From IMG/VR virus record IMGVR_UViG_3300025098_000064, positions 1 to 53,064 of that record: a stretch of 53,064 nucleotides of DNA; one strand, 5' to 3'. This DNA comes from a virus. Its lineage: Duplodnaviria; Caudoviricetes. Positions 1-53,064 of this stretch are shown here, one piece after another (position 1 is the first letter of the stretch; each line of letters starts with the position of its first letter). The notes under the pieces were generated by a model. It made no database searches, was not told where the DNA came from, and saw nothing but the letters and a program-made list of their open reading frames with translations. Made by a program: the position numbers and the translations under genes.

Positions 1-11
1 CAGAAGACGCG

Positions 12-3000
12 ATGCCTGGAAAAGGGTTACCAAAGATTCCTGAGTATGAAAGTCAAGTAGTTCAAACAGTACGAGAACTGTCGTCTATTGTTATGCCTAA
101 CGTGAGCATCATCGGTAGTGGTACAGCTGCTCTTACAAAAGCTTCCAAGGGAAGCAAATTCCTAAGTGATCCATTGGTAAGGAAAATAGGACAAACAGCC
201 TTTGCAGCCGGTACAGGAGCGTTTGTGGACTACGTTACAGAGTTCAATCAGACTGATGACAATGCTGCAGGGGCGTTAAAGAAATCGTTTCCTAATTGGA
301 CTGGATGGATACCAGACAACATTGCAACTTTAGATAGCGATTCACCGGATGTGAAACGCAATAAGAACGTCAATGAAGGCGTTTATCTGGGTATTGGCTC
401 AGACCTTGTTTTAGGACTGGGTAAGCTTGCTAAAGGCATTAAAGGTATTACTGACAGCCTTTGGGTTGGTGAGTCTGAAAAAGGAATGAAATTCCTAAAG
501 AAGAATGCTGTCAAAGAAGGCTCAACAGCTGCAGAAGTTGTTGAAGCCTCAGCAGCTGGCAGACAGATTGAACTAGATGAACTAGGTGGCTATAACTTTG
601 ACAAGTCTCAGAGCCTTGATCAACCTGTATATGGTGTTCATGATTTATATGGTTACCAAGAACAGGGCATTCGTTCACTTGACAATCTTGGAGTAGTTGG
701 TGCTTCAGTAGACGTGGTAAGGATTAGCAAAAACTATGACTCCGTTTATGGGAGGGTAGGAAGTGTATTTTCTGAAAGCGCTCTAAAGTATGGTCTAGAA
801 ACAAGTGAGCAGCAAAACATCCTTATTAATGGACTGGCTTCACAGCTTCGTGATGCTGACCAGTATGGATATAAAACTGCTTCAGGTAATTACATTCCTC
901 ATTCTGAAATTGTAGAGCAGGGAGAAAATCTGGCATCTGAGTTTTACAACATGGATGTTAGACAGATCAAACAGTTTCTTGAAAATAAAAACCTTACAGG
1001 AATTGATCCAGATACAGATATACCAGTCCTTAAAAGCGAAGCTTATGTAGGGGCAATGAAGGCAATCAAGATGTATATGGATGACTTCATGAATATGGAT
1101 GTTGTCAAAGCACAAGCCTATACAGCTACTTCATTAGCAGGACAAGTATCTGACACCGCACAAGGTATGCGTCTGACAGAAGGAACGCCTTCAATCATCA
1201 GAGCACAAGAGCAAATCTTGGATAGGGTTGAATTCTTGATGACTCAGAAGGGTATGACTTCTTATACCCGAGGTAGAGCGCTGAACATGCTGAACTTCTG
1301 GAACCGTATGTCTAAAAAAGGTTCTGATGCGTTCAACATGGCAGAAGCAAAACGTATGAAAAATCTCATCAAGAATGAGAACAATGAAACGTTAGCTGCA
1401 CTTGAAATGATCAAGCAAGATAGTGCAGAGACAATGGCAGTAATTAGAGAGATTAGTGCTGAAAGGCCAGAGATGCTTGCTCCTTTGATGTTTGCTTATG
1501 AGATGACTGACGGCAACGTCAAGACAATGCACCATCTAAATAGGTGGTTGCAGAACTCAACTGGTGTTTTAAATAAAGCATTCATTGATTTAGAACCTGA
1601 AATCCCATCATTGGTGTTGAAAGGTTTCTGGTCTAACTTGTATAATTCAACTCTAGGAGCATTTGCTACTCCTACCAAAGCAGGAATTTCTAATGCTTAT
1701 TTATTGTCTGAAAGGCCAATTAGAGCATTTGCAGGAGCATTACACCAAACGGCGACAACAGGTGATACAACACTGTTGAGACGTGGCTGGTATCAATACA
1801 CATCGATGATTGAAACCTTACAAAGCTCACATCAATACAGCAAGCAAGTATTCAAAAGGTCTGCTTTAGATCCTTATGTGACTGAAGTTCGTGATGACAT
1901 GGGCTTTAGAAATGAACAGGCACTAGAACTTGTAAACATGTATGCAGATGCTGCGGCAGAACGTGGTGAATTTGGCCCACAAGTAATGGCTCAAATAATC
2001 AATGATCAGGCAGCTTTAGCTAATCATCCTTGGACACGTTTTGGAACCAGAGCAATGCAAGCAGAAGATGGTTTTACACAAGCCATGATTGCTGTAGCAG
2101 AAGCAAAGGGAAGAGCATTTGACAGAGTAACTGAAGGTGGCACTAAAGCTTTTGACGCTGAAAAAGCAGAAGCGCTTTATAAGGAAGTGTATGACGGTAT
2201 GTTTGATGAAACAGGGTTAATCACTGACAAAGCAGTACGACATGCAGCTGGTGAAATTGCTATGAACCTGGACAGCAAAGGTAATACTTCATTGTCAGGT
2301 TTAATTAGCCATATGCCAATGGTTAAACCATTTATGTTGTTCACTAAAACACCAATCAATGAATTGGTACTAAGTGCTAGTTACACTCCTGTTAATCCAG
2401 TACAAGCTTTTTACAAAGACTTCGGTGAGTTCGGCAGAAAGTTTGAAGACACACCAACTGAAAAGTTAAAAGAGATATTTACTCGTAGAGGCATCACCGT
2501 TGATGAATTTTCAGCTAAGAATAAGTACGACGAACTTAGAGCTGACGTTATTGGCCGAAGAGCAATGGGAAGCATTGCAGTTACAAGTACTGTCGGTCTA
2601 TTTATGACTGACAGGATTACTGGTGACGGACTACATAACAGGCAAAAGCAAAAAGGTCGTACAGATTACGACTGGAAGCCAAGGTCAATCAAACTTCCAG
2701 GTGGTTATTGGGTCAGCTACGACAACTTAGGCGCTATATCAAATTGGCTTGCGTTGACTGTGAACATCATGGACAACTTCGACAGCCTAGAACCTAATGA
2801 TATGAGCGCTATGCTGAATAAGATGTCATTTATTTTAGGTGCTTCAGTAACTAAGAAATCACACCTAGCAGGTTTAGAAGGATTGTTTGACACCTTAAGT
2901 GGTGACTCAAGTGCAATGGCTAAACATGCAGCTAGCTTTCTAAGCGCAGGAACAATTACTGGTTCTAGTCAGCTTGCTGAAATCTCTAGATTAATGGAAC

Positions 3001-3611
3001 CTGGCAAGAAAGAAGTTGAGATGCAGCTTGATCAACTAATTACAAACCGACTTCCATTCTTAAAAGATACCTTGCCAGACAAGTATGACTGGATTGATGG
3101 CGGTGAAGTTGGAGTACCAGATAACTTCCTTGCAAGACTTGTAAACACCTACCTGCCTTGGAAAATTAACGGAAAAATTAGTCCCGAAAAGCAATTCTTA
3201 ATTGACATTGAGTATGACGCAGTACCTACACTACAAACAAATGGTGCCGGTGTTGAGTATACACCCGAACAAAGGTCAGATATTACTAACCGAATGGGTA
3301 AAGACAAGCTATTCCAGGCTGCTATACGACGTGTAATGGCGCGGGTAGATGCTAAGAAATTTAGAAGCGACTATAAAAAAGCTGTAGATGATGGCTTAAG
3401 TCCAGATTTAACAACCTTTAATGGCGTTCATAAAGAACTAGATTTGGAATTAGGGTTAGCTATGGATAGTGCTGCAGCGGCTTCACCGTATGCAACTGAA
3501 GTACAACGTAAACAGATGGTACAAGACACTGTTGAATTGTATCTACAACGTGGGGACCATAAGGGAGCAAAAGAGTTTATGAACTACATGGAATCAAAGT
3601 TTTCTATCTAA
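12..3611 (+). CDS. Internal virion (ejectosome) protein, T7 gp16-like, phage A; probably 5'-truncated by the window edge
   Basis: 1199-aa ORF directly upstream of the tail fibre. It occupies the same slot as 43407..47537 and shares weak motifs with it (PFMLFTKTP vs LPFFRTG; WVSYDNL vs WVSFAPL). Confidence 0.75.
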   Translation: MPGKGLPKIPEYESQVVQTVRELSSIVMPNVSIIGSGTAALTKASKGSKFLSDPLVRKIGQTAFAAGTGAFVDYVTEFNQTDDNAAGALKKSFPNWTGWIPDNIATLDSDSPDVKRNKNVNEGVYLGIGSDLVLGLGKLAKGIKGITDSLWVGESEKGMKFLKKNAVKEGSTAAEVVEASAAGRQIELDELGGYNFDKSQSLDQPVYGVHDLYGYQEQGIRSLDNLGVVGASVDVVRISKNYDSVYGRVGSVFSESALKYGLETSEQQNILINGLASQLRDADQYGYKTASGNYIPHSEIVEQGENLASEFYNMDVRQIKQFLENKNLTGIDPDTDIPVLKSEAYVGAMKAIKMYMDDFMNMDVVKAQAYTATSLAGQVSDTAQGMRLTEGTPSIIRAQEQILDRVEFLMTQKGMTSYTRGRALNMLNFWNRMSKKGSDAFNMAEAKRMKNLIKNENNETLAALEMIKQDSAETMAVIREISAERPEMLAPLMFAYEMTDGNVKTMHHLNRWLQNSTGVLNKAFIDLEPEIPSLVLKGFWSNLYNSTLGAFATPTKAGISNAYLLSERPIRAFAGALHQTATTGDTTLLRRGWYQYTSMIETLQSSHQYSKQVFKRSALDPYVTEVRDDMGFRNEQALELVNMYADAAAERGEFGPQVMAQIINDQAALANHPWTRFGTRAMQAEDGFTQAMIAVAEAKGRAFDRVTEGGTKAFDAEKAEALYKEVYDGMFDETGLITDKAVRHAAGEIAMNLDSKGNTSLSGLISHMPMVKPFMLFTKTPINELVLSASYTPVNPVQAFYKDFGEFGRKFEDTPTEKLKEIFTRRGITVDEFSAKNKYDELRADVIGRRAMGSIAVTSTVGLFMTDRITGDGLHNRQKQKGRTDYDWKPRSIKLPGGYWVSYDNLGAISNWLALTVNIMDNFDSLEPNDMSAMLNKMSFILGASVTKKSHLAGLEGLFDTLSGDSSAMAKHAASFLSAGTITGSSQLAEISRLMEPGKKEVEMQLDQLITNRLPFLKDTLPDKYDWIDGGEVGVPDNFLARLVNTYLPWKINGKISPEKQFLIDIEYDAVPTLQTNGAGVEYTPEQRSDITNRMGKDKLFQAAIRRVMARVDAKKFRSDYKKAVDDGLSPDLTTFNGVHKELDLELGLAMDSAAAASPYATEVQRKQMVQDTVELYLQRGDHKGAKEFMNYMESKFSI

Positions 3612-3619
3612 AAGGATAA

Positions 3620-5221
3620 ATGGCAACTACACAAACTACATATACAGGTAATGGTTCTACAACGAACTATGCTTTTACATTTGAATATATTAGCCAGGCA
3701 GACATCAAAGCCTCCCTTGATGGTACTGTAACAACAGCATTTACGTTAGCAAACGCAACGACAGTTGCCTTTAATACTGCACCAGCTTCTGGTGTCAACA
3801 TCATTATCTTCCGAGATACTGCTAATGACACTAGGGCAGCAACATTCTTTGCTGGATCAGCTATTAAAGCAGAAGATCTGAATGCAAACTTTGATCAGAT
3901 TACATACGTTGCACAGGAGACTGAAAACAACTCAATGAATTCATTGGGTGCAACGATGTCTGGTCAGCTCAATATGGGCAACCAAAAAATTGTAAGTCTA
4001 GGAGCGCCTACAGCTGCTACTGACGCTAGTACTCGGGGGTATGTAGATGGTCTAATCACTACCCACCAAGCACAGGTAGATGCAGCGGCAGCATCTCAAG
4101 CGGCAGCGGCGGCTTCTGAGACAGCAGCGGCTACCTCCGAGACAAACGCAGCATCAAGCGCTGCTACATCCACAACACAAGCTACTAACTCAGCAAATAG
4201 CGCTACTGCAAGCGCTAACTCAGCTACAGCTTCGGCTAACAGTGCTACAGCTTCAGCAACTAGCGCAACAGCGTCAGCAGGTTCTGCGAGTACTGCCGCT
4301 ACACAAGCGACTAACTCAGCTAACAGCGCAAGTACCTCTAGTACACAAGCCACTAACTCGTCTAATAGTGCATCAGCTAGCGCCACAAGTGCTAGTCAAG
4401 CCGCCACATCTGAAGCAAACGCAGCCACTAGCGCCACTAATTCGTCAAACAGTGCAACGTCAGCTGCTACTTCGGCAGCTTCTGCACTTGCAGCATTCGA
4501 TAACTTTGACGATACCTATCTAGGAGCTAAGGCTTCTGATCCCACTGTTGATAATGATGGAGATGCGTTGACTGCAGGTGACCTGTACTTCAACACCACT
4601 ACCGAGGTGATGAAGCTGTACACAGGATCTGCATGGGTAATTGCCTATGTGCCTGGTGATGCAGCAAACATTTCATTTACAGCAGCAGGAAACATAGCAG
4701 GAACAAATGTACAAACTGCAATCCAAGAGTTAGATACAGAAAAGGTTCCACGTACAGCAGCAACTGGTTCTGCCGAACTTCCTACTGGTACTACTGCTCA
4801 ACGTGATGCATCCGCTTCTGCCGGTTTAATTCGTTTTAACAGTACCCTTACACAGTTTGAAGGTTATAACGGTACTGCGTGGGGAGCTATTGGTGGCGGT
4901 GGTTTCGATGTACTGTCTGCACCCCCTACATCTCCTGCTCCACAAGGTGGTGATGTTTATTGGGATGATGATGAAGCCATTCCTTATATTTATTATGATC
5001 AAGGTGGTGGTGTAGCCAATTGGATCCCACTTGTCCCACAGCAGAATCCAAAAACTGCAGAAGGTGGAGGTAGTGATGAAATCTTCCACGAAAATGATCA
5101 GGCAGTAACTACTAGCTACACTATTGCTACTGGTAGAAATGCATTAAGTGCTGGTCCTATTACTATTAACACCGGAGCAACAGTAACTGTTAGTGCCGGA
5201 TCTACTTGGGTGATTGTTTAA
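3620..5221 (+). CDS. Tail fibre protein, T7 gp17-like, phage A
   Basis: N-terminal YTGNGSTTNYAFTFEY...AEDLNANFDQ resembles the T7 gp17 attachment domain. It is followed by a Ser/Ala/Thr heptad shaft, a DNDGDAL motif and the C-terminus SAGPITI...WVIV. Confidence 0.88.
   Translation: MATTQTTYTGNGSTTNYAFTFEYISQADIKASLDGTVTTAFTLANATTVAFNTAPASGVNIIIFRDTANDTRAATFFAGSAIKAEDLNANFDQITYVAQETENNSMNSLGATMSGQLNMGNQKIVSLGAPTAATDASTRGYVDGLITTHQAQVDAAAASQAAAAASETAAATSETNAASSAATSTTQATNSANSATASANSATASANSATASATSATASAGSASTAATQATNSANSASTSSTQATNSSNSASASATSASQAATSEANAATSATNSSNSATSAATSAASALAAFDNFDDTYLGAKASDPTVDNDGDALTAGDLYFNTTTEVMKLYTGSAWVIAYVPGDAANISFTAAGNIAGTNVQTAIQELDTEKVPRTAATGSAELPTGTTAQRDASASAGLIRFNSTLTQFEGYNGTAWGAIGGGGFDVLSAPPTSPAPQGGDVYWDDDEAIPYIYYDQGGGVANWIPLVPQQNPKTAEGGGSDEIFHENDQAVTTSYTIATGRNALSAGPITINTGATVTVSAGSTWVIV
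4080..4490 (+). repeat. Ser/Ala/Thr-rich heptad repeats (SATASAN-type) in the tail fibre shaft
   Basis: Degenerate 21-nt/7-aa periodicity is visible in the translation. The counterpart is at about 48014..48424. Confidence 0.8.
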
Positions 5222-5223
5222 CT

Positions 5224-5943
5224 ATGGCTATTACATTTCCCGCCAGTCCTGCAAATGGTGCAACGTATACTAATCCTACGACTGGCGTTCAATATATTTA
5301 TAACACAGCAGATGGTGTTTGGAAGACTTATGTCTGGCCTACTAACACCAATTATCTGCAGCTCACTGGTGGTACGTTAACTGGTGACTTAGCACTAGGT
5401 ACTAATGATCTAAGTGCTCAAGATATTACAGCCACTGGTGGTCTAACTATTGGAAATGGGTTAACTGTTTCTGACGGTAACATCGTTATGGCAGCTGGGC
5501 ACGGCATTGACTTCAGTGCTGACGCTAACGCTGCTGGAATGACAAATGAGTTGCTGGATGATTATGAAGAAGGTACTTGGACTCCAGTCATAAATGCAGG
5601 TACATTTTCTGCTAGCAATAATTATTATATAAAAATTGGGAACATTGTTCATTTGTCAACGCTGCTACATTCATTTTCAAATATAACTAACACCAGTCAG
5701 ATCACTGTTAGTGGCATTCCTTTTCTCAAAAAAAGTGATACTCAAGGTATTTCTTCAGTGTTTTTTAGATATATCGATAACGGGTCTAACACTTACTTAA
5801 CCGCATTTATGGGTGCAGATGGGGTTAAATTTTACGGTATGAATCCAGGTAATGGTACTAACTATGCCGAAGTTGATTACCAACATTTAACTTCCACTGC
5901 CAATTCTCAAATGCGGTTTCTTATGACTTACGTAACTGACTAG
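5224..5943 (+). CDS. Accessory tail fibre/adhesin-like protein (phage A only)
   Basis: ATG at 5224 (MAITFPASPANGATYT). It contains LTGGTLTGDL and GIDFSA...LLDDYEEGTWTP...YIKIGNIV motifs typical of marine phage tail-fibre modules. Confidence 0.7.
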   Translation: MAITFPASPANGATYTNPTTGVQYIYNTADGVWKTYVWPTNTNYLQLTGGTLTGDLALGTNDLSAQDITATGGLTIGNGLTVSDGNIVMAAGHGIDFSADANAAGMTNELLDDYEEGTWTPVINAGTFSASNNYYIKIGNIVHLSTLLHSFSNITNTSQITVSGIPFLKKSDTQGISSVFFRYIDNGSNTYLTAFMGADGVKFYGMNPGNGTNYAEVDYQHLTSTANSQMRFLMTYVTD

Positions 5944-5992
5944 AAACCCCCCCCCCATATAAACCTATCACTGCCAGTCGGCAGTCCTTAAA

Positions 5993-6249
5993 ATGGCATT
6001 TACAGAACACACAGAATACAAGGAAGAGATCCTTCCAAATCAAGTTATCCAAGTGCGTCGTGCTGACGTAATTAAAAAGACGGTGTTGAAGTAGGTCGTA
6101 CCTATCACCGCAACGTTGTTGTCCCTGGACAAGACGTAAGCGATCAACCAGCTGAAGTACAAGCTATTGCAGCTGCACTATGGACAGAAGAAGTTGTCTC
6201 TGCTTATCAAGCACAAGTAGCAGCTAGTGCATTACCTGAGGGTGAATAA
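5993..6249 (+). pseudogene. Small tail-fibre-associated protein split by a 1-nt frameshift at about 6074-6079
   Basis: MAFTEHTEYKEEILPNQVIQVRRADVIKK continues in the -1 frame as DGVEVGRTYHRNVVVPGQDVSDQPAEVQAIAAALWTEEVVSAYQ...GE*. The stop overlaps the next ATG at 6249. Confidence 0.7.
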
Positions 6250-6980
6250 TGCCTATTCGTATTGACGGAACTAATACCGCCGCTAATCCAGGTATTACGG
6301 GAGCAGACGCCGACACAGGTCTGCAATTTGGAACAGATGAAGTCAAGATTCTTACTGGTGGGACGGAACGGGTAACGGTCGATAGCGCGGGAAGAGTAGG
6401 CGTAGGTTCAGCTCCTATAGAAACGTTTCACATTAAAGGAGGTACAGTCACAAAATTAAATCTTGAGTCAAACAGTTCTACTGGTACAAGTGGGATTCAA
6501 TTTGGCGACCCAGAAGACATAAATGCAGGTCGTATTCAATATGAACACAATGATAATAGTCTTAACATTTACGTTAATGGGCTGCAAAAGCTAAGGATAA
6601 ATGAACATGGGCGTTTAAGCGGTGACGCTCTTGCTGTTTCACATGTTATTGCTCTGATTTATGCAAGATTAATATCACACGGAGGTTGCAGTAGTGGCGG
6701 ACCAAGCGGTACTTTCACCACTTTCGACAGTAGCCAGATTTCTTTTAAAACAGTTTCACGTACTACAACATCAGCTCCAACCAACTACACCTTCTTTGGA
6801 GATAACAGTGGTCATGCTTTTTTCTTATACGTTGGTTGTAACGATAGGCCAGCTATTGGCGTTACTGATGCAAGTGTCGCTGAGGGCTCTACATACCGCT
6901 CGTGGCTTTGTATCCACAAAGATTTTGTAGGAGCATTACTGGGACTTCCTACTAACACAACAAGAACTAATTTACCATGA
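6249..6980 (+). CDS. Accessory tail fibre protein (slot 1, phage A)
   Basis: Its N-terminus is homologous to that of 49002..50477. The ERVTVDSAGRVGVG...P...FHIKG repeat is typical of fibre shafts. Confidence 0.7.
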   Translation: MPIRIDGTNTAANPGITGADADTGLQFGTDEVKILTGGTERVTVDSAGRVGVGSAPIETFHIKGGTVTKLNLESNSSTGTSGIQFGDPEDINAGRIQYEHNDNSLNIYVNGLQKLRINEHGRLSGDALAVSHVIALIYARLISHGGCSSGGPSGTFTTFDSSQISFKTVSRTTTSAPTNYTFFGDNSGHAFFLYVGCNDRPAIGVTDASVAEGSTYRSWLCIHKDFVGALLGLPTNTTRTNLP

Positions 6981-7168
6981 CTCTATCTTATAAATTTATT
7001 GATTGCACAAATCAACTAGCTGAAGCCGAAGATAGCAACGGCAATAAATGGATGTTTTTGGCTGACGACACCACCAATCCAGCTCAACAAGTTTGGGCAA
7101 ACACTTACCCCCTGCCTGAAATTACTATATGTAATGACCCGGTTCCTGCTGATTCTGAGGATGAATAA
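6977..7168 (+). CDS. Small hypothetical protein, possible fibre chaperone
   Basis: 63-aa ORF translationally coupled at both ends (ATGA and TAATG overlaps). Confidence 0.6.
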   Translation: MTLSYKFIDCTNQLAEAEDSNGNKWMFLADDTTNPAQQVWANTYPLPEITICNDPVPADSEDE

Positions 7169-7794
7169 TGCCTATTAAATTAAACGGGGCAACGTCTGGT
7201 TCGGTTGAACTGGGTGTGCCCGACGCCGTAACTGGTGGTGATGTAACACTTACTTTGCCACCTAATGATGGCAGTGCTGGGCAATTTCTAAACACCAATG
7301 GTTCTGGTGCTTTAAGTTTTGCAACCATTGCACCATTTTCTGAGGTAGATAATTGGCGTCTTACTGCTGATAAGCAAGGATCAGACACTGACGTCACTGC
7401 TAATTTTGAAAGAGTTGATGCCGCCACCTCTGCCTACATTGGATCAGGCATGAGCGTATCTTCTGGGATTTGGACATTTCCTCAAACTGGTATTTACTTT
7501 ATACTTTACACCGCGTCGTTTGTTCACGACGGCAATGATAATTCTGGGCTACAACTACTATCGACTACTAACGGTGGTAATACTTTTGATATACTTTGCC
7601 AAGCCATTGACGGCAACACTGCTGGAGAAGACAGAACTGGAAGTGCGACCGCTTTTGCTATTGTTGACGTAACAGATACGTCCAACGTAAAGGTAAAATT
7701 TAAATGTGATTCTTTTGCTGCTACCAGTAGGCTATTAGGTAATTCTAACCAAAGTGAAACCCATTTTTTGTTCGTTCGTATTGGAGATACTTAA
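7168..7794 (+). CDS. Accessory tail fibre protein (slot 2, phage A)
   Basis: The first 18 aa (MPIKLNGATSGSVELGVP) are identical to 50480..51118. TLPPNDGSAGQFLNTNGSGALSF linker followed by a beta-rich C-terminal domain. Confidence 0.7.
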   Translation: MPIKLNGATSGSVELGVPDAVTGGDVTLTLPPNDGSAGQFLNTNGSGALSFATIAPFSEVDNWRLTADKQGSDTDVTANFERVDAATSAYIGSGMSVSSGIWTFPQTGIYFILYTASFVHDGNDNSGLQLLSTTNGGNTFDILCQAIDGNTAGEDRTGSATAFAIVDVTDTSNVKVKFKCDSFAATSRLLGNSNQSETHFLFVRIGDT

Positions 7795-43406: not shown

Positions 43407-46400
43407 ATGGAAGAACTTAATTTTACAGAAGAAGAAAAGGCTTATTGGGATAAGGTAAATCAGCAAAACCGAGAAAGCTACCTCAGGGATAATCCTGAAG
43501 AAGACCCCGCCCTTCCAGAAATCACATCTGAGTCCTTAACAGATGAGGAATCTGCTGAAATTGATGCAGAGATAGAGCAGGAAGAAGAGGAAGAGTTTGA
43601 AGCAAGGCGTGACCTTAATTGGGTTGATAATGCCATGCTTGGTCTTAGGGATTCTATTGATGACAACTTTCAAGGGAATAGTCAAACTCGCGAAGAGATC
43701 GAAGAAAGGTTTATCGAGAAGCGTGGGGAACGAGAGAAACAGATTCAAAGTAATCCCATCCGCCAAGTTCTTGCTGAAACAACCGGTGCTGTTGAGGGTG
43801 CTTCTGCTCAGACAATTGAAACTCTAGGTGAAACTGTTGAACTTGGAATTGATACTCTACGTGCTGGTATTAAAACAGTTCTTCCTGGCCAAGAAGATCC
43901 CAAGAATATCCCTTGGAACGAAAACTATGAATGGGCTGATTGGGATCTAGGTACTGCCAATGCCAAAACACCTGTCGGTAAGTTTGCAGAACAGATGATT
44001 GCTGTTGTTATCGGCATGAAGGGGCTCAAGGCTGCTGGTGTTGGCGTTGGAGGTGGTAAGACTCTTCAAAGCCGTGTTGCATCGGAAACTTTCCGTGGTG
44101 CTCTTTATGACTTCTTTTCAGAGCCTGGTGAAGGAAACATGAGCAATCTTGTTCAATCAGGTCCCTTTGCTAATAACCTATCCAAAGCTCTTGCACATGA
44201 TGAGTTTGATAATCCTTGGATTCGCAGACTCAAAAATATGATTGAGGGAGGTATTATCGGCACGGCAGTCGATGGCCTTCAAGAGGCATATGGAGCTTTT
44301 CGTGCTGGTAGGAAAGCCAAGCTTGACGCTTTAGCTGAGGGTGAAAGCCGAGCCAGAGCAGCAGAAAAAGCAGTTGAAGCCACTCGTAAATACGCTTATG
44401 GTGAACAACCTGAACTTGACCTTGGTAAGCCTGTAAAAGGTAAAAAGAAGAAGATTTCTTCAAAATCGGCAAGTGGCAATGTCTATGAAACCACTTCTCA
44501 ACCTATTGACTACAAGCCACCTGAGCCTAAACAGGGTGAACTTGATCTTGATATTAGGGTAAATAAGCAAGGTGAACTTGACTTTGGCCCTGATCGCCCT
44601 GATCTCGATCCAGGTAATGCTGCTCGTAAGGCAGAAAACGTACAGAACAGTGGACGCCCTTCTACTGTAAGTACTGATAATCAAGTACGTCAGATTTGGG
44701 AATCTGATCCTAATAGAAAGACCCCATACGATGAACTTACAGACTTACAGAAATCAGACTTAACTAAAGCATATAGAGCAAGCAATATGCTCGTTGAGGG
44801 TAAGCCTGCCCTCTTTGACCCCCAGGATCGCGTACAACAGACCCGAAAGTTCAATATTAATGAGTCTGTATCAAGCTTCTGGGAAGGCCCTCTAGGGTCT
44901 GGGAAGAGCCTTGTGAATGAGGCTGACATAAGTCGACTTAAAGACATAGATCAATTGAAATCATTTATCAAGGAGCAAATCCCTGATATTGACGTTGATT
45001 ATCTAACTGCTCGCTTGCGTCGTCAGCCTGAAGAGCATGTACTAAAAACAATGCAATCACTTGCACAGTTTGCAGATACTCGTAATCCAGCTTTGTTAGA
45101 GCCTCTGCGTTTTAAAAGTACTCTTGATATCAAAGGTGTTGATGCTGGTGGTGCTGTTGTTCTTGACACATTGGTCAATTCAGTATCAGAGCGTATTAGT
45201 TTTCTGGCGGAAGAAGCTTATCAACTAACTCAGTTTGATGTTCCTTTCAAACTACAAGCAAGACAGATTCTTGATCGTGGTGAAGCTTTGCTCACTATGA
45301 AAAAAGAGGCGACAAGGTTTTCTAGTGATAATCTAAAAAACTGGGGTGATGTTCCTCCTGATACTTTACGTGCTTTGGAAGCAGATAATGCAATTATCAG
45401 CAAAGTGTTTAGGGATATGCGTGAAGGATTAGAAGCTACTGACCCACTTGCGATAAAGCGCTTTCAGAAGCAATTTGGTAAGCTATCTATTGCTCTCGCT
45501 CATTCCAAAGGCGATCCTACGGCAATTACCAATGTAATCTATGGGATTGGCAAAGTAGGGTTCAAACGTGTTGAATCCGTTTATATAAATTCTCTTCTTT
45601 CGTCTCCTTTAACACATACACGTAACATAGCTGGTAACACTATCGCTATGGGCGAGCGTACTGCTTCAAGAACTGTTGGCAACCTATTAACTGGTGACTT
45701 TAAGGGCGCAAGACTTGGAGCTGCTTCTTTTGACTCTATTTATACTACTTTTGTTGAATCTCTTGCTGTAGCTAAGTCTTCCTTTAACTCACCTTATGCA
45801 ATAACGACGCCTAAATCAAACCTCACGAACTTTGTACTTGAGGACCGTAAGGCAATTGTTAACATGAGGAGGTCTGCTGGTCCCGCTGGTCGTATTGCTG
45901 GTGACTTAGCTCTTACTGCGTTTGATTTATTCAACAATATCTGGTTTAACTGGCCTGGTAAAGCTTTGCAAGCTGGTGATGATTTTACTAAATCTATGTT
46001 GGCACGTATGGAACTTCGATATGAAGCTGCCGTTGAGGCTGACAGGCTTGCAGGTGAAGGAGCTTCATTTAAGTCGAGGGAAGAGCTCTATCAGACGCTA
46101 TCAACAAGAAAGCTATCTGCTTCTGGTGAGATTCTGGATCATAAACTTGTTAAAATTACCGAAGATGCAGCTTTTCAGCGTGATTTAGAAGGCTGGGCTG
46201 GTTCTATGAGTGCAGGTGTTCAGAAATTACCTGGTGGTCGATTAGTTCTTCCTTTCTTTAGGACTGGTCATAATATATCTCGTTATGCTCTACAACTTTC
46301 ACCACTAGCCAAATTGTCCTCTGAGCATCGCCATGTAATGAAATATGGGACTCCAGATGAACAAGCGATTATGCGTGGTCGTATGGCTCTTGGATCAACC

Positions 46401-47537
46401 ATAACTGGTATGGCAGCCATGTTGACGACTCAAGGTCTAATGACTGGTTATGGTCCAGAGCCTGGGCCTAGGCGAGAACAGTGGTTACAAGATCATGAGC
46501 CTATAAGTGTTTGGGTTGGTCCTTTTGACGAACTTATGAAGTCAAAAGAAGATAGAAATTATAAAAAAGGTAAGTGGGTTTCTTTTGCCCCTTTACCTGG
46601 ATTTGCAATTCTTTTATCTACTACATCTGACTTGGTAACTAATGCCGGTAAGTTAGCTCAAGGTGATTATGAATACTTAGCAGGTGCTCTTCCTTTCTTT
46701 GCTGCTAATGCGATTCTTGAGCAGCCAATGTTTCAAGGTGTTTTAAACATGGCTGAAATATTTGACTTGCGTAATGAGACTCCTGAGGGACTTACTGCCA
46801 AGGTTTATGAAATGGGTAATACGGTTTTAGGTAATTCATCTGCTCGTCGTCACCTTCAAAGCCTTCTCTCATCAAACATGCACGAATACCAAACTTGGTA
46901 TCAAACTGCTTTGAACAAGATGACTGGCGGCTTAGCTGCTCCTGCTATGGAAGCACTTGGTCTTGAGAGTGGAAAAGTACTTAAGCCAGACATTTTAACT
47001 GGCCTTGATATCCCTAATAAGTACAATAATCCTGTTAACAGTCTAAATCCATTTACTGTTATCGGTAAACATGCTAGTCCATTGTTAGATGAGTTTGCAA
47101 GGCTTGAATATCCAATTAATCTTGCCCATCCAAAAAGGATCGGTGGGGTAACTATGGATCCCAGTGAAGAGCGACTTTATCGACTAGCTATGTATGACAA
47201 TGGTAACTTTGCTAAACAACTTACAGACAAGTTGAGAAGTACTGATTTCCAACGTGCCTATAACAGTTGGCGAGACCGTGTAGAAGGTCGAGATGTCTTA
47301 CCGGCAGAACCACGTAAGGAAAGTTCTTGGTATGGAATGCTTGATAAGCTTGTAGCAGCAGCTAATGAACGTGGGCGTAACGCTCTCGTAAAGGGTGATA
47401 ACCCCGTATCTATTAACTGGAAAAATACTTATGCTGAACGTAGTGCAAAGCTAGGTTCAGGCAAAGAAGATCCTGCTAGCTTCGATGTAATTAATAATAT
47501 TAAAGACTACGCCGCGTTTACTCAACCAACCAAGTAA
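43407..47537 (+). CDS. Internal virion protein (T7 gp16-like), phage B
   Basis: 1376 aa between gp15 and the tail fibre; INSLLSSPLTHTRNIAGN and LQAGDDFTK motifs. Confidence 0.8.
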   Translation: MEELNFTEEEKAYWDKVNQQNRESYLRDNPEEDPALPEITSESLTDEESAEIDAEIEQEEEEEFEARRDLNWVDNAMLGLRDSIDDNFQGNSQTREEIEERFIEKRGEREKQIQSNPIRQVLAETTGAVEGASAQTIETLGETVELGIDTLRAGIKTVLPGQEDPKNIPWNENYEWADWDLGTANAKTPVGKFAEQMIAVVIGMKGLKAAGVGVGGGKTLQSRVASETFRGALYDFFSEPGEGNMSNLVQSGPFANNLSKALAHDEFDNPWIRRLKNMIEGGIIGTAVDGLQEAYGAFRAGRKAKLDALAEGESRARAAEKAVEATRKYAYGEQPELDLGKPVKGKKKKISSKSASGNVYETTSQPIDYKPPEPKQGELDLDIRVNKQGELDFGPDRPDLDPGNAARKAENVQNSGRPSTVSTDNQVRQIWESDPNRKTPYDELTDLQKSDLTKAYRASNMLVEGKPALFDPQDRVQQTRKFNINESVSSFWEGPLGSGKSLVNEADISRLKDIDQLKSFIKEQIPDIDVDYLTARLRRQPEEHVLKTMQSLAQFADTRNPALLEPLRFKSTLDIKGVDAGGAVVLDTLVNSVSERISFLAEEAYQLTQFDVPFKLQARQILDRGEALLTMKKEATRFSSDNLKNWGDVPPDTLRALEADNAIISKVFRDMREGLEATDPLAIKRFQKQFGKLSIALAHSKGDPTAITNVIYGIGKVGFKRVESVYINSLLSSPLTHTRNIAGNTIAMGERTASRTVGNLLTGDFKGARLGAASFDSIYTTFVESLAVAKSSFNSPYAITTPKSNLTNFVLEDRKAIVNMRRSAGPAGRIAGDLALTAFDLFNNIWFNWPGKALQAGDDFTKSMLARMELRYEAAVEADRLAGEGASFKSREELYQTLSTRKLSASGEILDHKLVKITEDAAFQRDLEGWAGSMSAGVQKLPGGRLVLPFFRTGHNISRYALQLSPLAKLSSEHRHVMKYGTPDEQAIMRGRMALGSTITGMAAMLTTQGLMTGYGPEPGPRREQWLQDHEPISVWVGPFDELMKSKEDRNYKKGKWVSFAPLPGFAILLSTTSDLVTNAGKLAQGDYEYLAGALPFFAANAILEQPMFQGVLNMAEIFDLRNETPEGLTAKVYEMGNTVLGNSSARRHLQSLLSSNMHEYQTWYQTALNKMTGGLAAPAMEALGLESGKVLKPDILTGLDIPNKYNNPVNSLNPFTVIGKHASPLLDEFARLEYPINLAHPKRIGGVTMDPSEERLYRLAMYDNGNFAKQLTDKLRSTDFQRAYNSWRDRVEGRDVLPAEPRKESSWYGMLDKLVAAANERGRNALVKGDNPVSINWKNTYAERSAKLGSGKEDPASFDVINNIKDYAAFTQPTK

Positions 47538-47553
47538 CTTATTTGTCTAGACT

Positions 47554-48999
47554 ATGGCAACTACATCCAATACTTATACTGGAGATGGGTCAACGACCCT
47601 CTTCAGTTTTACATTCCCCTATATTTCTGAAAGTGATGTCAAGGTACAACTTGACGGAACTGCTACAACACAATTTACTTTTTCCAACGCCACTACTCTA
47701 GCTCTTACTACTGCACCTGCATCGGGTGTAACCATTACTATCTTTAGAGAAACCAATATTGAAGATGTTGCGTCGGCATTTTATGCTGGTTCTTCAATTA
47801 AGGCTAAAGATCTAAACGATAACTTCATTCAGACTCTGTATGTCTCACAGGAAGTTTCTAATGAAGCATTAAGTACCCTAGGAGGTACTCTTATTGGTCA
47901 GCTCGATATGAGCAACCAAAAGATTGTAAGCCTAGGAACGCCTACAGCGGCTACTGACGCTAGTACTCGCGGCTATGTAGACGGCTTAATCACTACACAC
48001 CAAGCTCAAGTAGATGCAGCGGCAGCATCTGCTACAGCATCGGCCTCTTCTGCTTCTAGTTCGGCCACCTCAGCTACTAATTCAGCGACAAGTGCGAGTA
48101 CTTCAAGCACTCAAGCTACAAACTCAGCTAATAGTGCAACAGCTAGCGCTAATAGCGCCACAGCATCGGCCAACAGTGCCACAGCATCGGCGAATAGCGC
48201 TACTACAGCTGCTAATGAAGCGGTTACGGCTACTACACAGGCTACAAACGCTTCAAATAGTGCATCTACAGCTACGACCCAGGCTACAAATGCTTCCACT
48301 AGTGCTTCAGCAGCTGCTACAAGTGCAAGTCAAGCCTCTACATCAGAGACAAACGCAGCCAATAGCGCCACAGACTCGTCAAACAGTGCAACGTCAGCTG
48401 CTACTTCGGCAGCTTCTGCACTTGCAGCATTCGATAACTTTGACGATACCTATCTAGGAGCTAAGGCTGCTGATCCCACTGTTGATAATGATGGAGATGC
48501 GTTGACTGCAGGTGACCTGTACTTCAACACAACTAACGAGGTGATGAAGCTGTACACAGGAACTGCATGGGTAATTGCCTATGTACCTGGAGATGCAGCA
48601 AACATTACATTTACAGCAGCTGGTAACTTAGCCGGAACAAATGTACAGGCAGCTATCCAAGAGTTAGATACAGAAAAGATCCAAAAGACAAGTGCGACGG
48701 GTGCTGCAAAACTACCTAGTGGAACTGCAGCTCAACGTGACAATTCACCTGCTGCTGGTTATATCCGGTTTAACACTGATGTAACCCAATTTGAAGGTTA
48801 TACAGGCACAGCTTGGGCAAGTGTCGGCGGTGGTGCAACAGGTGGCGGAAGTGATACGTGGGCTGTCGAACATGACAACACGATCACGCAATCGTACACA
48901 ATTGGTACTGGTAAGAATGTTATTAGTGCTGGACCGTTGACGGTCAATAGCGGTGCAACTGTCACCGTACCTTCAGGATCTAACTGGGTAATTGTTTAA
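47554..48999 (+). CDS. Tail fibre protein, T7 gp17-like, phage B
   Basis: YTGDGSTTLFSFTFPYI N-terminal domain. Collinear with 3620..5221 except that it lacks a roughly 51-aa insert. Confidence 0.88.
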   Translation: MATTSNTYTGDGSTTLFSFTFPYISESDVKVQLDGTATTQFTFSNATTLALTTAPASGVTITIFRETNIEDVASAFYAGSSIKAKDLNDNFIQTLYVSQEVSNEALSTLGGTLIGQLDMSNQKIVSLGTPTAATDASTRGYVDGLITTHQAQVDAAAASATASASSASSSATSATNSATSASTSSTQATNSANSATASANSATASANSATASANSATTAANEAVTATTQATNASNSASTATTQATNASTSASAAATSASQASTSETNAANSATDSSNSATSAATSAASALAAFDNFDDTYLGAKAADPTVDNDGDALTAGDLYFNTTNEVMKLYTGTAWVIAYVPGDAANITFTAAGNLAGTNVQAAIQELDTEKIQKTSATGAAKLPSGTAAQRDNSPAAGYIRFNTDVTQFEGYTGTAWASVGGGATGGGSDTWAVEHDNTITQSYTIGTGKNVISAGPLTVNSGATVTVPSGSNWVIV

Positions 49000-49001
49000 C
49001 T

Positions 49002-50477
49002 ATGACTATTAAAATTAACGGTACTAATACAACCGCACAACCAAGTATTACAGGAACAGATACTGACACGGGTCTGGTCTACGGAACAGATGAAGTCAGT
49101 ATTGTTACTGGCGGCGTTGAGAAAATAAAAACCACTAACACTGGTTTTGATCTTAACCTTGATGCCAACACTGATTCTCTAACAATTGAAAACACAGCAG
49201 GTGATGGATTATATTTTGCTCCTGGTATGGGTCTTGATGATTGGAGTCGGCAAGTATTTAGAATTGAAAGAAAATCGCTGCAGGCATCACCTGGAGACGT
49301 GAGAGCTGCTGATGTTAATCTTCTTAGTATTGCTGCATCTGGTTCTGTTTATGGTGCTAGAAGTATGCTCGCAGGAGTGTCGCAAACGGATGCAGATCAG
49401 CCAGTTAGCACATACATACCAGATAACAATATTGGCTTTACAGCGTTTCAAGGCACAACTGACCAAACAGGTTATCGTGCAAGAGTCCACTTGAGATGTT
49501 CAACTAGCGATGATGACGATCTTGCTTGTTTTTATTACACAGACTCGAATGATGCTACAACACCTATTGATTATGATGCAGATCAAACATTAAGGATGAC
49601 CGGTTCAGGCAGAATTAATTGTAAAAAAACTTTCTATGCAGGAAGAGTTGAGTCTGACGAAGGTAGTCCTAATAGTGTTTATAATAGTTCTGCTACTGGG
49701 ATATATGCTTACCAGGGTTCTGGTGAAGGCAATATAAGGATGATCGCATATTCAACACCGTCATCAAGTCATAACAGTTTTTATGCAGAGACTGGAACAT
49801 CAACTGCTAATGATGATGTTCAATTTAGAGTAAGAGCAACTGATGGGAAAATATATTCTGATGCTGGCGGCAGTGTTTCATCAGGTGCTGACTATGCCGA
49901 ATCTTTTGAGTGGTTAGACGGTAACCCAGAAAATGAGGATAGAGTTGGATATAGTGTTGTTTTACAAGACGGTAAAATTAGAAAGGCACTAGATACTGAT
50001 GCTACTTCACAAATCATAGGAATTATTTCTGCAGCGCCTGCTGTACTGGGTGATTCTGCTGATTTAAAATGGCAAGGACGTTATCTCAAAGACGATTTTG
50101 GGAGAGAAATAATGCAACATATTGAACTGCTCGTTTGGAATCATGGTGAAAATGAATATCAGCCTGATAAGAATGATCTATTTAGGCTGCAAAGTTGTGA
50201 CAGTTCTTGCGCAGTTTCCGAAATTGAAGAAAAACTTGCTAGTGGTGAAATTAAACAGTGGATGGTAGATCAAGATTTGAGAATTACGTCACAAGTCAGA
50301 ACACCTAATCCAGATTTTGACCCATCTAGTTGTTATGTCCCAAGGTCTGAACGGCCTGAATGGGATCCAGTCGGCTTGATGGGTAAATTATGGATGAGAC
50401 CAAATCAGCCCACTGGCGATCGTTGGTTAAAACTTAGAGATGGAAACAATGGACTTACTTACTGGTTGGTGCGCTAA
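49002..50477 (+). CDS. Tail fibre/spike (slot 1, phage B) with C-terminal Peptidase_G2-like intramolecular chaperone
   Basis: GADYAESFEWLDGNPENEDRVGYSVVL...YVPRSERPEWDPVGLMGKL matches the autocleaved chaperone pattern. Confidence 0.8.
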   Translation: MTIKINGTNTTAQPSITGTDTDTGLVYGTDEVSIVTGGVEKIKTTNTGFDLNLDANTDSLTIENTAGDGLYFAPGMGLDDWSRQVFRIERKSLQASPGDVRAADVNLLSIAASGSVYGARSMLAGVSQTDADQPVSTYIPDNNIGFTAFQGTTDQTGYRARVHLRCSTSDDDDLACFYYTDSNDATTPIDYDADQTLRMTGSGRINCKKTFYAGRVESDEGSPNSVYNSSATGIYAYQGSGEGNIRMIAYSTPSSSHNSFYAETGTSTANDDVQFRVRATDGKIYSDAGGSVSSGADYAESFEWLDGNPENEDRVGYSVVLQDGKIRKALDTDATSQIIGIISAAPAVLGDSADLKWQGRYLKDDFGREIMQHIELLVWNHGENEYQPDKNDLFRLQSCDSSCAVSEIEEKLASGEIKQWMVDQDLRITSQVRTPNPDFDPSSCYVPRSERPEWDPVGLMGKLWMRPNQPTGDRWLKLRDGNNGLTYWLVR

Positions 50478-50479
50478 TT

Positions 50480-51118
50480 ATGCCTATTAAATTAAACGGG
50501 GCAACGTCTGGTTCGGTTGAACTGGGTGTGCCCGCAGCTATTGGATCGGACATCAGTTTTACATTGCCAAGTGCTGATGGAAATGCTGGTCAATTTCTTA
50601 AAACAGACGGTAGTAATCAGCTTACATTTACAAACGAGCTGCCAAATAATTATGCCTTCCTGCGCTACAAAGAAGCTGGTAGTGCCTTATCTAGAAATAT
50701 AGGTACAACAGAAACAACTGACCCCGATATTTCAGTTACTACTACTGGGTATAAGCGTGGAGATATTATTATTGTATACGCTTATGTTCCTGTTGGTATT
50801 GCTTTAGCGTCAACTGATCAACAGAATTATGTGGGATTACACATTAGACCGAGGTTATTTTCTGGCTCTACTGTTTTGCAAGGACAAGATACAAAAGTCT
50901 GGTTGCGAATGGATGGCCGCGCTACTAAAGAGGCAATGCAGTTAGGCTGTTGTTTTGCGTTCCTGCAACCAGATAGTACAACCTTTAATGACGGCGACGA
51001 TATTACTTTTACCTGCACTTATCAACAGTATTCATTAGTAGCTTCGGGTTCTACTGGCGTATGTAATTGGCTCGGCAGGCGTCATTTTCAGCTATTTCAT
51101 TATAGAAAGGAGATCTAA
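50480..51118 (+). CDS. Accessory tail fibre protein (slot 2, phage B)
   Basis: N-terminus shared with 7168..7794; the C-terminal domain is unrelated. Confidence 0.7.
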   Translation: MPIKLNGATSGSVELGVPAAIGSDISFTLPSADGNAGQFLKTDGSNQLTFTNELPNNYAFLRYKEAGSALSRNIGTTETTDPDISVTTTGYKRGDIIIVYAYVPVGIALASTDQQNYVGLHIRPRLFSGSTVLQGQDTKVWLRMDGRATKEAMQLGCCFAFLQPDSTTFNDGDDITFTCTYQQYSLVASGSTGVCNWLGRRHFQLFHYRKEI

Positions 51119-51483
51119 TGTCATACACAATTTCACAGCTAATGCAAGCTGCTCAGCAACTTAATGCCACAGGCACTTTTGGTGTTGATGGGGTTAGTTG
51201 GAACGATATTACAGAAGAGGCGCTGCTAGTAGCATCTTCTGAACAAACTTTTGGTGTAGAGCCTTCTGTGTTTGTTGCACATCTACAAGCCAATGCTGTT
51301 TGGAATGATGTACGAACTACTCGCAACATTCGTCTTCAAGACTGTGATTGGACGGTCGGCAATGATTCCCCCTTGTCTGATACACAAAAAGATGTTTGGC
51401 AAACTTATAGACAAGCACTACGCGATGTGACTACACAAAGCAACCCAACAAACATCACTTGGCCTACTAAACCGGGAGCATAA
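51118..51483 (+). CDS. Tail fibre assembly chaperone
   Basis: WNDVRTTRNIRLQDCDWT...WQTYRQALRDVT...ITWPTKP is the typical tail assembly chaperone signature. Confidence 0.82.
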   Translation: MSYTISQLMQAAQQLNATGTFGVDGVSWNDITEEALLVASSEQTFGVEPSVFVAHLQANAVWNDVRTTRNIRLQDCDWTVGNDSPLSDTQKDVWQTYRQALRDVTTQSNPTNITWPTKPGA

Positions 51484-51485
51484 AT

Positions 51486-52598
51486 ATGAGTACAATTAAA
51501 GTAAATAATATCGACCCACCTAATGTAGGTGAGGGCGTCAGTATTGACGGCTTGCAGATGCCAACTGCTGGGGCGTTAAGTAACAGGAACCTCGTGATTA
51601 ATGGGGATCATAGAGTGCATCAAAGAGGCACTAGCGTAAGCCTGACTGATGGTACTGCAACATTTCTTACCGATAGATTTCAAGCGTATGAAAGTACAGG
51701 CGGCTCGCTTAATATGGCAAATGTAGCTGAAGGCCCAGATAATTTTGTTAACTCTACAAAAATTACTGTTACATCTGCAGACACTAGCTTGTCTACAGGC
51801 CAGCAAACTTGGATCCGGCATCGTGTCGAAGGAAACAATATTGCACATTTAAATTGGGGATCATCAGCAGCGCAAACTGTTACCTTATCTTTTTATGTTC
51901 GTTCAAGTGTTACAGGGTCATTCTCTGTTTCACTTCAAAACTCAGCAGGCAATAGAGTATACCCTGTTTTGTATACAATTTCAGCAGCAAATACCTGGGA
52001 AAGGAAAACTATAACTATTCCTGGAGAAACTTCGGGTACTTGGTATACGGATAACAGAACAGGTATCACAATTTACTGGAGCTTTGGTATGGCTAGTAAT
52101 TTGCAGGGTACTCCAGGTCAATGGAATAGCTCTTCTGCTAGAACTGCAACTGGTGAAACACAGTTGATCGCTACTAATGGTGCAACTTGGCAAATCACTG
52201 GCGTCCAATTAGAGGTCGGTTCCAAGGCCACCCCTTTTGAACACGAAAGCTATGGTCAGACTTTGGCTAAGTGTCAGAGGTATCGATATCAAATAGACTT
52301 AGGAGATGAAAGTGCGCCACAACACTATCTAATGTCGCGGTTTGAGGCATCAGCGGGTCCTGCATATGCTTTTGTGCCATTCCCGGCTGAAATGCGGATA
52401 GCACCTAATTTTACATATACAGGAGGAACGGCTTCTTCTTCTGGTTATGCAGGGAATCCATCAATGAATAGATCAACACCATCAGGAGCTAACCTTATAT
52501 CATCACGAAATATAAGTGCAAACTTTACAGTATATTTAAGACCGACTGCGCTCCCTAGTAGTGGTATTCTTATTCTAAATTTTGATGCTGAACTATGA
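51486..52598 (+). CDS. Accessory tail fibre protein (slot 3, phage B/A junction)
   Basis: The first 36 aa and last about 127 aa are identical to 7795..8964; the middle domain is divergent. Confidence 0.75.
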   Translation: MSTIKVNNIDPPNVGEGVSIDGLQMPTAGALSNRNLVINGDHRVHQRGTSVSLTDGTATFLTDRFQAYESTGGSLNMANVAEGPDNFVNSTKITVTSADTSLSTGQQTWIRHRVEGNNIAHLNWGSSAAQTVTLSFYVRSSVTGSFSVSLQNSAGNRVYPVLYTISAANTWERKTITIPGETSGTWYTDNRTGITIYWSFGMASNLQGTPGQWNSSSARTATGETQLIATNGATWQITGVQLEVGSKATPFEHESYGQTLAKCQRYRYQIDLGDESAPQHYLMSRFEASAGPAYAFVPFPAEMRIAPNFTYTGGTASSSGYAGNPSMNRSTPSGANLISSRNISANFTVYLRPTALPSSGILILNFDAEL

Positions 52599-52646
52599 AC
52601 TACAAACTAATGTACCACGAGCCAGATTTTCCTGGTAACTGTGTTG
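52263..52646. repeat. 384-bp perfect direct repeat, copy 2
   Basis: Identical to 8629..9012. Confidence 0.95.
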
Positions 52647-52771
52647 TTATGAAACTTGAAGATGGTGTAAATCCTTTATACATAGTAAAAGGAGAATCTA
52701 ATACCGACTATCAAGAATATCTCGAATGGCTAGCCGAAGGCAACGAACCACTACCCGCTGATGAACCATGA
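52595..52771 (+). CDS. Small tail-fibre-associated protein (58 aa)
   Basis: Paralog of 8961..9134 (…NTDYQEYLEWLAEGNEPLPADEP*). Confidence 0.75.
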   Translation: MNYKLMYHEPDFPGNCVVMKLEDGVNPLYIVKGESNTDYQEYLEWLAEGNEPLPADEP

Positions 52772-52932
52772 TTACACTTATTAGACCACTACTATTTTCA
52801 TTCTTACAATCTGATCGTGTTAAAGCATTGATTGTAGAAATGCTAGAGAAACTGTGTGAGTCAACCGATAATGATATCGATGACAAAGCAGTTGAATTTA
52901 TCCGTAACGGTTTATTCCCGGTTAAGAAATGA
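52768..52932 (+). CDS. Conserved cyanopodovirus-type small protein (54 aa), phage A
   Basis: MITLIRPLLFSFLQSDRVKALIVEMLEKLCESTDNDIDDKAVEFIRNGLFPVKK*, with ATGA overlaps at both ends. Confidence 0.7.
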   Translation: MITLIRPLLFSFLQSDRVKALIVEMLEKLCESTDNDIDDKAVEFIRNGLFPVKK

Positions 52933-53064
52933 ACCTAGGGGAGCCACCACTGTTCCCCTCTATAACGCTCCCTGAACCGCTTCAATTACCTCCACCAATA
53001 CTAGAGGTGCCACGGGCAGATATACCCTCTTACAAGCCCTTGGTAGTACCTCCTAGCGACCTTA
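52929..53064 (+). CDS. Pro-rich hypothetical protein, 3'-truncated, phage A
   Basis: MNLGEPPLFPSITLPEPLQLPPPILEVPRADIPSYKPLVVPPSDL, open to the window end. Confidence 0.55.
   Translation, partial: MNLGEPPLFPSITLPEPLQLPPPILEVPRADIPSYKPLVVPPSDL

Follow-up and report, generated by a model that had tools for sequence, protein, structure and literature searches.

Record IMGVR_UViG_3300025098_000064 of IMG/VR (53,064 bp; analysed whole and referred to below as the window) carries the same 384-bp sequence at two sites, with the genes of one T7-like phage between the two copies and parts of another phage outside them. Our analysis suggested, with a probability of about 0.85, that this nested arrangement is a metagenome-assembly chimera of two co-occurring T7-like cyanopodoviruses and not a real molecule. 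The most likely real content of the record is a closed MPP-A-like genome (phage B, the inner unit), a fragment of an MPP-B-like phage (phage A, the outer part) and, between the two, an unremarkable recent swap of the end of a tail protein. A preliminary description of this DNA had preferred an assembler looping through a shared repeat. That explanation gained support from the two lineages of the parts, the completeness of the inner genome, the varying depths and the native-type joins found in relatives.

The repeat and its flanks

Positions 8629–9012 were identical to positions 52263–52646, and these 384 bp form the maximal exact match at an offset of 43,634, so that the perfect repeat reported in the preliminary description was reproduced exactly. 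Identity of this length within 53 kb cannot have arisen by chance. The identical core is enclosed in a longer homology of 575 bp (8557–9131 versus 52191–52765, 97.6% identical), with 6 mismatches in the 72 positions of the left flank and 8 in the 119 of the right flank (together 14/191) and none in the 384 positions of the core. At the divergence of the flanks, 384 straight identical bases would have a probability near 2e-13. Thus, either the core is more recent than the sequence around it, or a single graph node was output twice. Outside the limits of 8556 and 9131, the sequences around the two copies were unrelated, giving one core with two different left and two different right flanks. The downstream genes also differed as previously described, with a GH73 lysin gene after copy 1 and an open reading frame (ORF) beginning with MITLIRP after copy 2, although neither follows the core directly: because the homology extends beyond the perfect core, both start 119 bases past it.

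The longest identical runs within the flanks were 25, 26, 40 and 39 nt. Since they reach 40 nt at most, A and B have no node in common other than the core at k ≥ 41. In an assembly graph, this node would have two incoming edges (the tails of A and B) and two outgoing edges (the B lysin and the small ORFs of A), and the B genome would form a loop on the core, closing on itself at 43,634 bp. An assembler could then emit the walk A-left, core, all of B, core and A-right, in which each edge is used once. A near-equal depth of A and B, as found in one sequencing run (X1, see below), would leave it no coverage signal against this walk. We infer both this behaviour of the assembler and the absence of molecules with A–B and B–A joins. 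A 41-mer of the core had no exact match in IMG/VR, where records near the window were perhaps not covered, and neither this 41-mer nor a 23-mer of the core had any in JGI metagenome contigs.

Phage B encodes a tyrosine integrase (Table 1), which could in principle have inserted B into A site-specifically. We regard this as a practically negligible possibility. The 575-bp homology that contains the junctions is coding and lies 12 kb from the integrase gene, and the duplicated sequence is the end of a tail gene and not a tRNA-type core. Self-comparison revealed no core site common to the repeat and the integrase-proximal region, and the sole attP-like element, a 34–37-nt match to tRNA-Leu at 22041–22077, is located away from the junction.

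Two phage lineages, their joins and their abundances

The inner 43,634 bp represent one complete T7-like cyanopodovirus genome. PHROG and Pfam scans of 65 ORFs identified a single gene set between the copies, in line with the non-redundant set described previously. PMC4646655 gives a size of 42.3–47.7 kb for cyanopodovirus genomes; the 43,634-bp period falls within this range and the 53,064-bp record outside it, and thus the inner unit corresponds to a genome of normal size for the group. The proteins of B were compared with those of three cultured genomes, P60, S-TIP28 and WH11-B. The amino acid identities to these phages were 84%, 82% and 61%, respectively, for the large terminase (TerL), 68%, 70% and 41% for the DNA polymerase and 75%, 79% and 43% for the capsid protein. 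The closest cultured match of gp16 was that of S-TIP28 (30%), and no match was obtained in WH11-B. Neither psbA nor hli was found in B. According to PMC4646655, P60 and S-CBP42 belong to MPP-A, S-CBP4 to MPP-B, and MPP-A phages are without psbA; the labels used here follow Table 1 and the accessory-gene passage of that paper and not a phylogenetic tree. Judged by its T7-type core genes in order, its MPP-A nearest relatives and the absence of psbA, phage B fits the MPP-A group.

The DNA outside the copies (1–8628, the repeat and 52647–53064) is a 9,430-bp piece of another phage. Given that gp16 is truncated at its 5' end and the last ORF is open at its 3' end, the contig begins and ends within genes of phage A. 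The outer gp16 had been described as very divergent; in an alignment of 484 residues, its identity to the inner gp16 was 22%, and the two genes had no nucleotide similarity. The outer gp16 covers positions 141–1360 of the 1375 in the phrog_6651 profile, and its amino acid identity was 58%–59% to gp16 of WH11-B and S-B28, 52% to that of S-CBP4 and 21%–23% to those of P60 and S-TIP28. From gp16 and the N-terminus of the tail fibre, the two regions on which it was scored, phage A resembles WH11-B, S-B28 and S-CBP4 and would fit the MPP-B group. A complete genome of normal size thus lies inside a fragment whose gp16 comes from another lineage.

Independent IMG/VR contigs contained joins corresponding to each of these phages. 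In L038 (14.4 kb, from another sample), gp16 was 97% identical in amino acids to that of A, and its ORF extends 394 nt further upstream than the first base of the window. Upstream of this gene, the capsid protein and tail tube proteins A and B were 78%, 77% and 60% identical to those of WH11-B, as compared with 43%, 40% and 29% to those of phage B, and the upstream 8.7 kb had no nucleotide match anywhere in the window. Because this near-identical gp16 sits behind a WH11-B-type capsid and tail tubes, A is not merely an allele of B. The gp16 of A was contiguous with the A tail fibre in L003, L038, L039 and L041 (87%–92% nucleotide identity). In L012, L007, L006 and L011, A-type tail pieces (for example, 4333–5585 at 95% and 6058–6270 at 97%) led directly into the A right flank (within 52199–53064, 84%–98%), and in the closest carriers of this flank TerL was just 63% identical in amino acids to that of B. 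On the B side, the record behind L143 and L221 was colinear with 33640–48803 (87%–94% nucleotide identity, and 88%–94% for the portal to internal virion protein genes) and continued through a shorter cassette into the B lysin region (9059–9785, 91%), with no A-type gp16 between the B tail part and the lysin. The B lysin itself was 96%–99% identical in amino acids in L013, L142 and L143. A search with gp16 of B found no stand-alone closed B genome in IMG/VR, the one related record being the 18.5-kb record behind L143 and L221. In a megablast search against cultured phages, neither A nor B had a close relative (best match 74%–77% over TerL).

These joins also bear on the idea of a single phage with two alleles, in which A would be a strain variant of B in the island from gp16 to the tail and the contig would run about 1.2 turns round a circular graph. 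In its favour, cyanopodovirus tail regions are described as variable and liable to exchange (PMC4646655), gene order and gene starts are conserved between the two cassettes, and a B-type lysin follows A-like tail pieces in L013 and L142. Nevertheless, this idea appears very unlikely. The two gp16 genes have no nucleotide similarity and only 22% of residues in common, and L038, the closest relative of gp16 of A, has a WH11-B-like and not a B-like capsid and tail tubes. The first bases of the window matched nothing in B in the self-comparison, although the start of a bubble should do so. The right flank of A is wholly divergent from B past 9131, with no similarity of 52766–53064 anywhere in B, and its closest carriers have the distant TerL noted above. 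Finally, the A:B depth ratio varied between runs.

Eleven marine metagenome runs from 2017, with nine sample codes and nine study codes, contained a share of 0.78 or more of the words sampled from 4001–14000, a stretch that spans A and B; these eleven runs may stem from a single campaign. Runs X13–X24 had small shares and are not counted as evidence. Runs X1, X8, X11 and X12 were aligned to positions 1–20000, and the figures given here are from the 32 pieces listed of 832. Depths in X1 were 48.7 and 43.1 for gp16 of A and 53.1–55.4 for B (A:B ca. 0.85). In X8, they were 501.3 and 417.7 versus 140.3–181.5 (ca. 3.0), and in X11, 114.6 and 91.7 versus 41.4–60.7 (ca. 2.0). The contig depths of these three runs therefore indicate that A and B vary independently in abundance, whereas two parts of one molecule would be expected to keep a constant ratio. 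Of the depth difference that the preliminary description had proposed to look for, a departure from 1:1 was evident in X8 and X11, but the depths were near equal in X1. The B contigs were identical to the window in X1 and X8 and had 4–12 other letters each in X11. A contig departed at 9131 into the letters of window position 52766 onwards, that is, the A right flank, in each of X1, X8 and X11. No piece bridging the core was found among those listed, and the pieces of X1 end at 8605 and resume at 9102.

Another explanation would be a real hetero-concatemer or co-integrate, formed by a single crossover in the 575-bp segment between an MPP-A-like and an MPP-B-like phage in one Synechococcus cell. 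If true, the record would show recombination between clades directly, while it was taking place in the sea. T7-like phages replicate via concatemers, 575 bp of homology is sufficient for recombination, and mosaic tail cassettes indicate that such crossovers occur in the group; A and B were also found together in the eleven runs, and their depths in X1 were near equal. However, a co-integrate implies a fixed 1:1 stoichiometry, and the ratios in X8 and X11 mean that A and B were mostly present as separate molecules. Compared with its parents, an intermediate of this kind would be rare, and an assembler would not favour it. Having gp16 and the tail cassette twice, it would measure more than 53 kb, which exceeds the range in PMC4646655, and would be unpackageable as a genome; the same structure is obtained free from a graph walk. 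A co-integrate is thus very unlikely in our view.

Several points weigh against an assembly chimera. The A–A and B–B joins were seen in relatives only (78%–98% nucleotide identity), with a different C-terminal domain and without the core. L013 and L142 join cassettes with some A-like pieces to the B-type lysin at 95%–96%, which means that a B-like genome can naturally carry distal tail modules of the A-like type. Runs X1, X8 and X11 may stem from a single campaign, and the record itself may derive from one of them. The evidence from the runs consists of Logan contigs rather than reads, each with a single depth that may include close strains. The gp16 contigs of A in X1, X8 and X11 were ca. 1% different from the window, and the near-equal depths in X1 would also be expected of a co-integrate.

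Gene content of the two parts

All genes of the window are located on the + strand, and ARAGORN detected no tRNA in it. The predicted features are listed in Table 1.

Table 1. Predicted features of the window, in order of position.
Part	Feature	Position	Strand	Basis or remark
A	gp16, 5'-truncated by contig end (ca. 131 aa absent)	1–3611 (ORF 3–3611)	+	phrog_6651, E 9e-280
A	Tail fibre, T7-type, 533 aa	3620–5221	+	PF03906 N-terminal domain
A	Further tail-cassette ORFs	5206–5943, 6249–6980, 6977–7168, 7168–7794	+	Weak PHROG matches: phrog_17970, phrog_18345 (tail fibre)
A	Last tail gene, 389 aa	7795–8964	+	phrog_4492, tail fibre
Shared	Shared segment, copy 1	8557–9131, core 8629–9012	+	Self-comparison
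B	GH73 endolysin	9131–9685	+	PF01832 (glucosaminidase), E 9e-22; phrog_10051
B	Terminase region	9682–14927	+	PHROG matches; also contains small ORFs
B	Small terminase	9902–10141	+	PHROG
B	HNH	10406–10672	+	PHROG
B	Large terminase (TerL)	12232–13956	+	PHROG
B	ThyX	14277–14927	+	PHROG; gene-poor stretch next
B	Early and replication genes	14928–31388	+	PHROG, Pfam, cultured-phage comparison
B	RNA polymerase	18028–20451	+	
B	MarR-like regulator	20709–21125	+	
B	Tyrosine integrase	21079–21954	+	PF00589
B	SSB, endonuclease	Between integrase and primase/helicase	+	
B	Primase/helicase	23426–25051	+	
B	DNA polymerase	25322–27088	+	
B	Exonuclease, MazG, RNR	After DNA polymerase, within 14928–31388	+	
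B	Portal, scaffold, capsid, tail tube A, tail tube B, internal virion proteins	31390–43406	+	PHROG, cultured-phage comparison
B	gp16, 1376 aa	43407–47537	+	phrog_6651, E 9e-101
B	Tail cassette, five genes	47554–52598	+	PHROG, Pfam
B	Tail fibre	47554–48999	+	
B	Peptidase_G2/IMC protein	49002–50477	+	PF11962, intramolecular-chaperone autoproteolytic domain
B	Tail-cassette ORF	50480–51118	+	
B	Tail assembly chaperone	51118–51483	+	PF16778
B	Last tail gene, 370 aa	51486–52598	+	phrog_4492
Shared	Shared segment, copy 2	52191–52765, core 52263–52646	+	Self-comparison
A	54-aa ORF (MITLIRP...), right flank	52768–52932	+	phrog_2738
A	3'-open ORF, right flank	52926–53064	+	phrog_9426

The attP-like stretch at 22041–22077, located just downstream of the integrase gene of B, matched cyanomyovirus DNA over 34–37 nt at 97%–100% identity, and the match in one cyanomyovirus record overlaps an annotated tRNA-Leu. 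This stretch may be a candidate attP-like tRNA fragment. ARAGORN and Rfam recognised no tRNA there, and the only Rfam match was a chance-level one to a snoRNA (E 0.46).

The 54-aa ORF in the right flank of A was very strongly conserved, with 217 relatives in IMG/VR, and it was 100% identical in a phage whose gp16 is only 32% identical to that of A. It is therefore no lineage marker. The ORF was found directly upstream of a lysin gene in several contigs (L160, L163, L164, L166 and others), and a lysis-related role would be a guess.

Tail modules and comparison with known systems

The second tail cassette noted outside the copies in the preliminary description was located at 3620–8964, after the outer gp16. 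The two cassettes resembled each other in short blocks. The tail fibres of A and B were 75% identical in nucleotides over 1,285 bp (3620–4903 versus 47554–48834), and further similarity was found between 7795–7898 and 51486–51589 (98%), between 7164–7295 and 50476–50604 (79%) and between 6249–6361 and 49002–49114 (76%). Two of the A genes within 5206–7794 resembled their B counterparts over the first ca. 60–130 nt only, and the Pfam scan found neither the Peptidase_G2 (PF11962) nor the PF16778 protein of the B cassette in the A cassette. Apart from the shared segment, the similar pieces correspond to the first 60–130 nt of cassette genes that follow one another, which is the usual pattern of conserved anchors and exchangeable distal parts.

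The shared segment comprises the end of the phrog_4492 tail gene and most of a 57/58-aa ORF; in copy 1, it takes in the final 136 codons of the former and most of the latter, which is located at 8961–9134 and encodes 57 aa. In a BLASTP comparison, the last tail proteins of A and B were 60% identical overall and nearly identical at both ends, with the first 36 aa in common, a divergent middle and near-identity from about residue 250 of A onwards (ca. 140 aa). An AlphaFold model of the A protein, built with 49 aligned sequences, had a mean pLDDT of 79 and contained beta-sandwich domains. The best PDB matches in Foldseek were CBM11, CBM4, CBM16, CBM22 and the enzymatically active domain of tailspike protein 4 of phage CBA120 (TSP4dN; E 2e-6 to 1e-4, target TM 0.5–0.6); these matches concern the whole tail protein and do not distinguish which of the two beta-sandwich domains resembles the CBMs. 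The CBM-like fold of the model would be consistent with a role in host recognition. The family of this gene is large: at least 2,883 of the 8,000 scored candidate proteins reached E ≤ 1e-10, and most of them were encoded on contigs a few kb long. One member was on L017 (IMGVR_UViG_3300025653_000035, 65,093 bp), a contig that was considered as a second example of such an artefact and rejected, having no TerL match and a CheckV completeness of 29%. Given that L017 carries a relative at 36% identity and no T7-type large terminase, the family also occurs outside T7-like phages. Positions 9090–9127, which lie towards the 3' end of the ORF of 57 aa, were identical over 38 nt to an unannotated stretch of the T4-like cyanomyovirus S-T4; the corresponding copy at 52724–52761 has one mismatch, corresponding to position 9092.

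The contrast between 14 mismatches in the 191 flanking positions and none in the 384 of the core agrees with the earlier proposal of a tail segment that was exchanged recently and is common to both phages. Perfect identity would, however, arise by construction if the assembler walked one node twice. Even so, the shared stretch is most likely real, and would reflect a recent event of homologous exchange in which the C-terminal domain of the tail protein passed between the lineages. The 112-aa C-terminal domain had matches in four of the 214 fetched loci: L003, L011 and L012 at 59%–62%, where the context was A-type in each case, and L008 at 35%. Since four matches are too few and the sample is biased by the queries used, no donor of the exchange is named.

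Contigs of the public runs had loose ends or joints at gene starts or at the ends of conserved N-termini (3619/3620, 7165, 7222/7223, 7795, 7898 and 8624–9075), and an alternative allele replaced 8625–9074 at a depth of 252 in X8 and 91 in X11. Seven of the 13 checked strings at contig ends matched nothing in the window, and thus more than two genotypes share these module boundaries. The tail cassette is a multi-genotype mosaic hot spot. In X12, a seawater metagenome of 2025 with a share of 0.23, B-like contigs (95%–99%) covered 9280–15313 and 17527–20000, and small contigs lay within 4670–8671. The bins of 668–3335, in gp16 of A, were uncovered, an absence not counted as evidence. This is at most a hint of a B-like phage without gp16 of A and with A-like distal tail modules.

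The main value of these results concerns database hygiene, as an IMG/VR record with the end class linear and a CheckV completeness of 100% appears to be a composite of two lineages. If used unsplit, it would inflate the genome size, suggest false gene sharing between MPP-A-like and MPP-B-like phages and imply that gp16 and the tail cassette each occur twice in one phage. Correct use would split it into a closed 43,634-bp genome (9013–52646) and a 9,430-bp fragment. The remaining biology is modest: the CBM-like tail proteins of two co-occurring cyanophage lineages are nearly identical in their C-terminal domain, which fits known modular exchange and hints at a common host or receptor.

Chimeric contigs are a known problem in viromes (PMC3901335; PMC4247695; PMC5610896). 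The account of CheckV in PMC8116208 includes over-long IMG/VR contigs that contain the same genome several times, are found by k-mer frequency and are probable assembly artefacts. Like these, the present record is longer than the genomes of its group, would result from an assembler walking a cycle more than once and is rated 100% complete. It differs in that the extra 9.4 kb come from another lineage and only 384 bp are repeated. A concatemer of one genome does not describe it, with a mean 21-mer frequency of 1.012, linear ends and a heterologous second gp16 and cassette. Because the 21-mer frequency is this low, the ends carry no repeat and the extra DNA is heterologous, checks of k-mer frequency and terminal repeats would probably miss such a record.

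Among cultured phages, B has the gene order of P60 and S-TIP28, which it also resembles in being without psbA, and its block of RNA polymerase, regulator and integrase genes is as annotated in S-TIP28. In contrast, its gp16 is just 24%–30% identical to theirs, and its cassette past the fibre N-terminus is unrelated. Phage A is similar to WH11-B, S-B28 and S-CBP4 in gp16 (52%–59%), and the A-like L038 has a WH11-B-type capsid and tail tube. Only a 9.4-kb fragment of A is present, and its cassette beyond the fibre N-terminus differs from that of WH11-B. In cyanopodoviruses, tail fibre and internal core genes are described as prone to exchange (PMC4646655), and distant phages, for example those of Alteromonas, are described as exchanging the tail fibre parts used in host recognition as modules (PMC10579305). 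The two phages studied here share with those Alteromonas phages the conserved N-terminal anchors, the swapped distal parts and a near-identical distal module in distant phages, whereas the piece exchanged here is only ca. 0.6 kb long and comprises one C-terminal domain and a small ORF.

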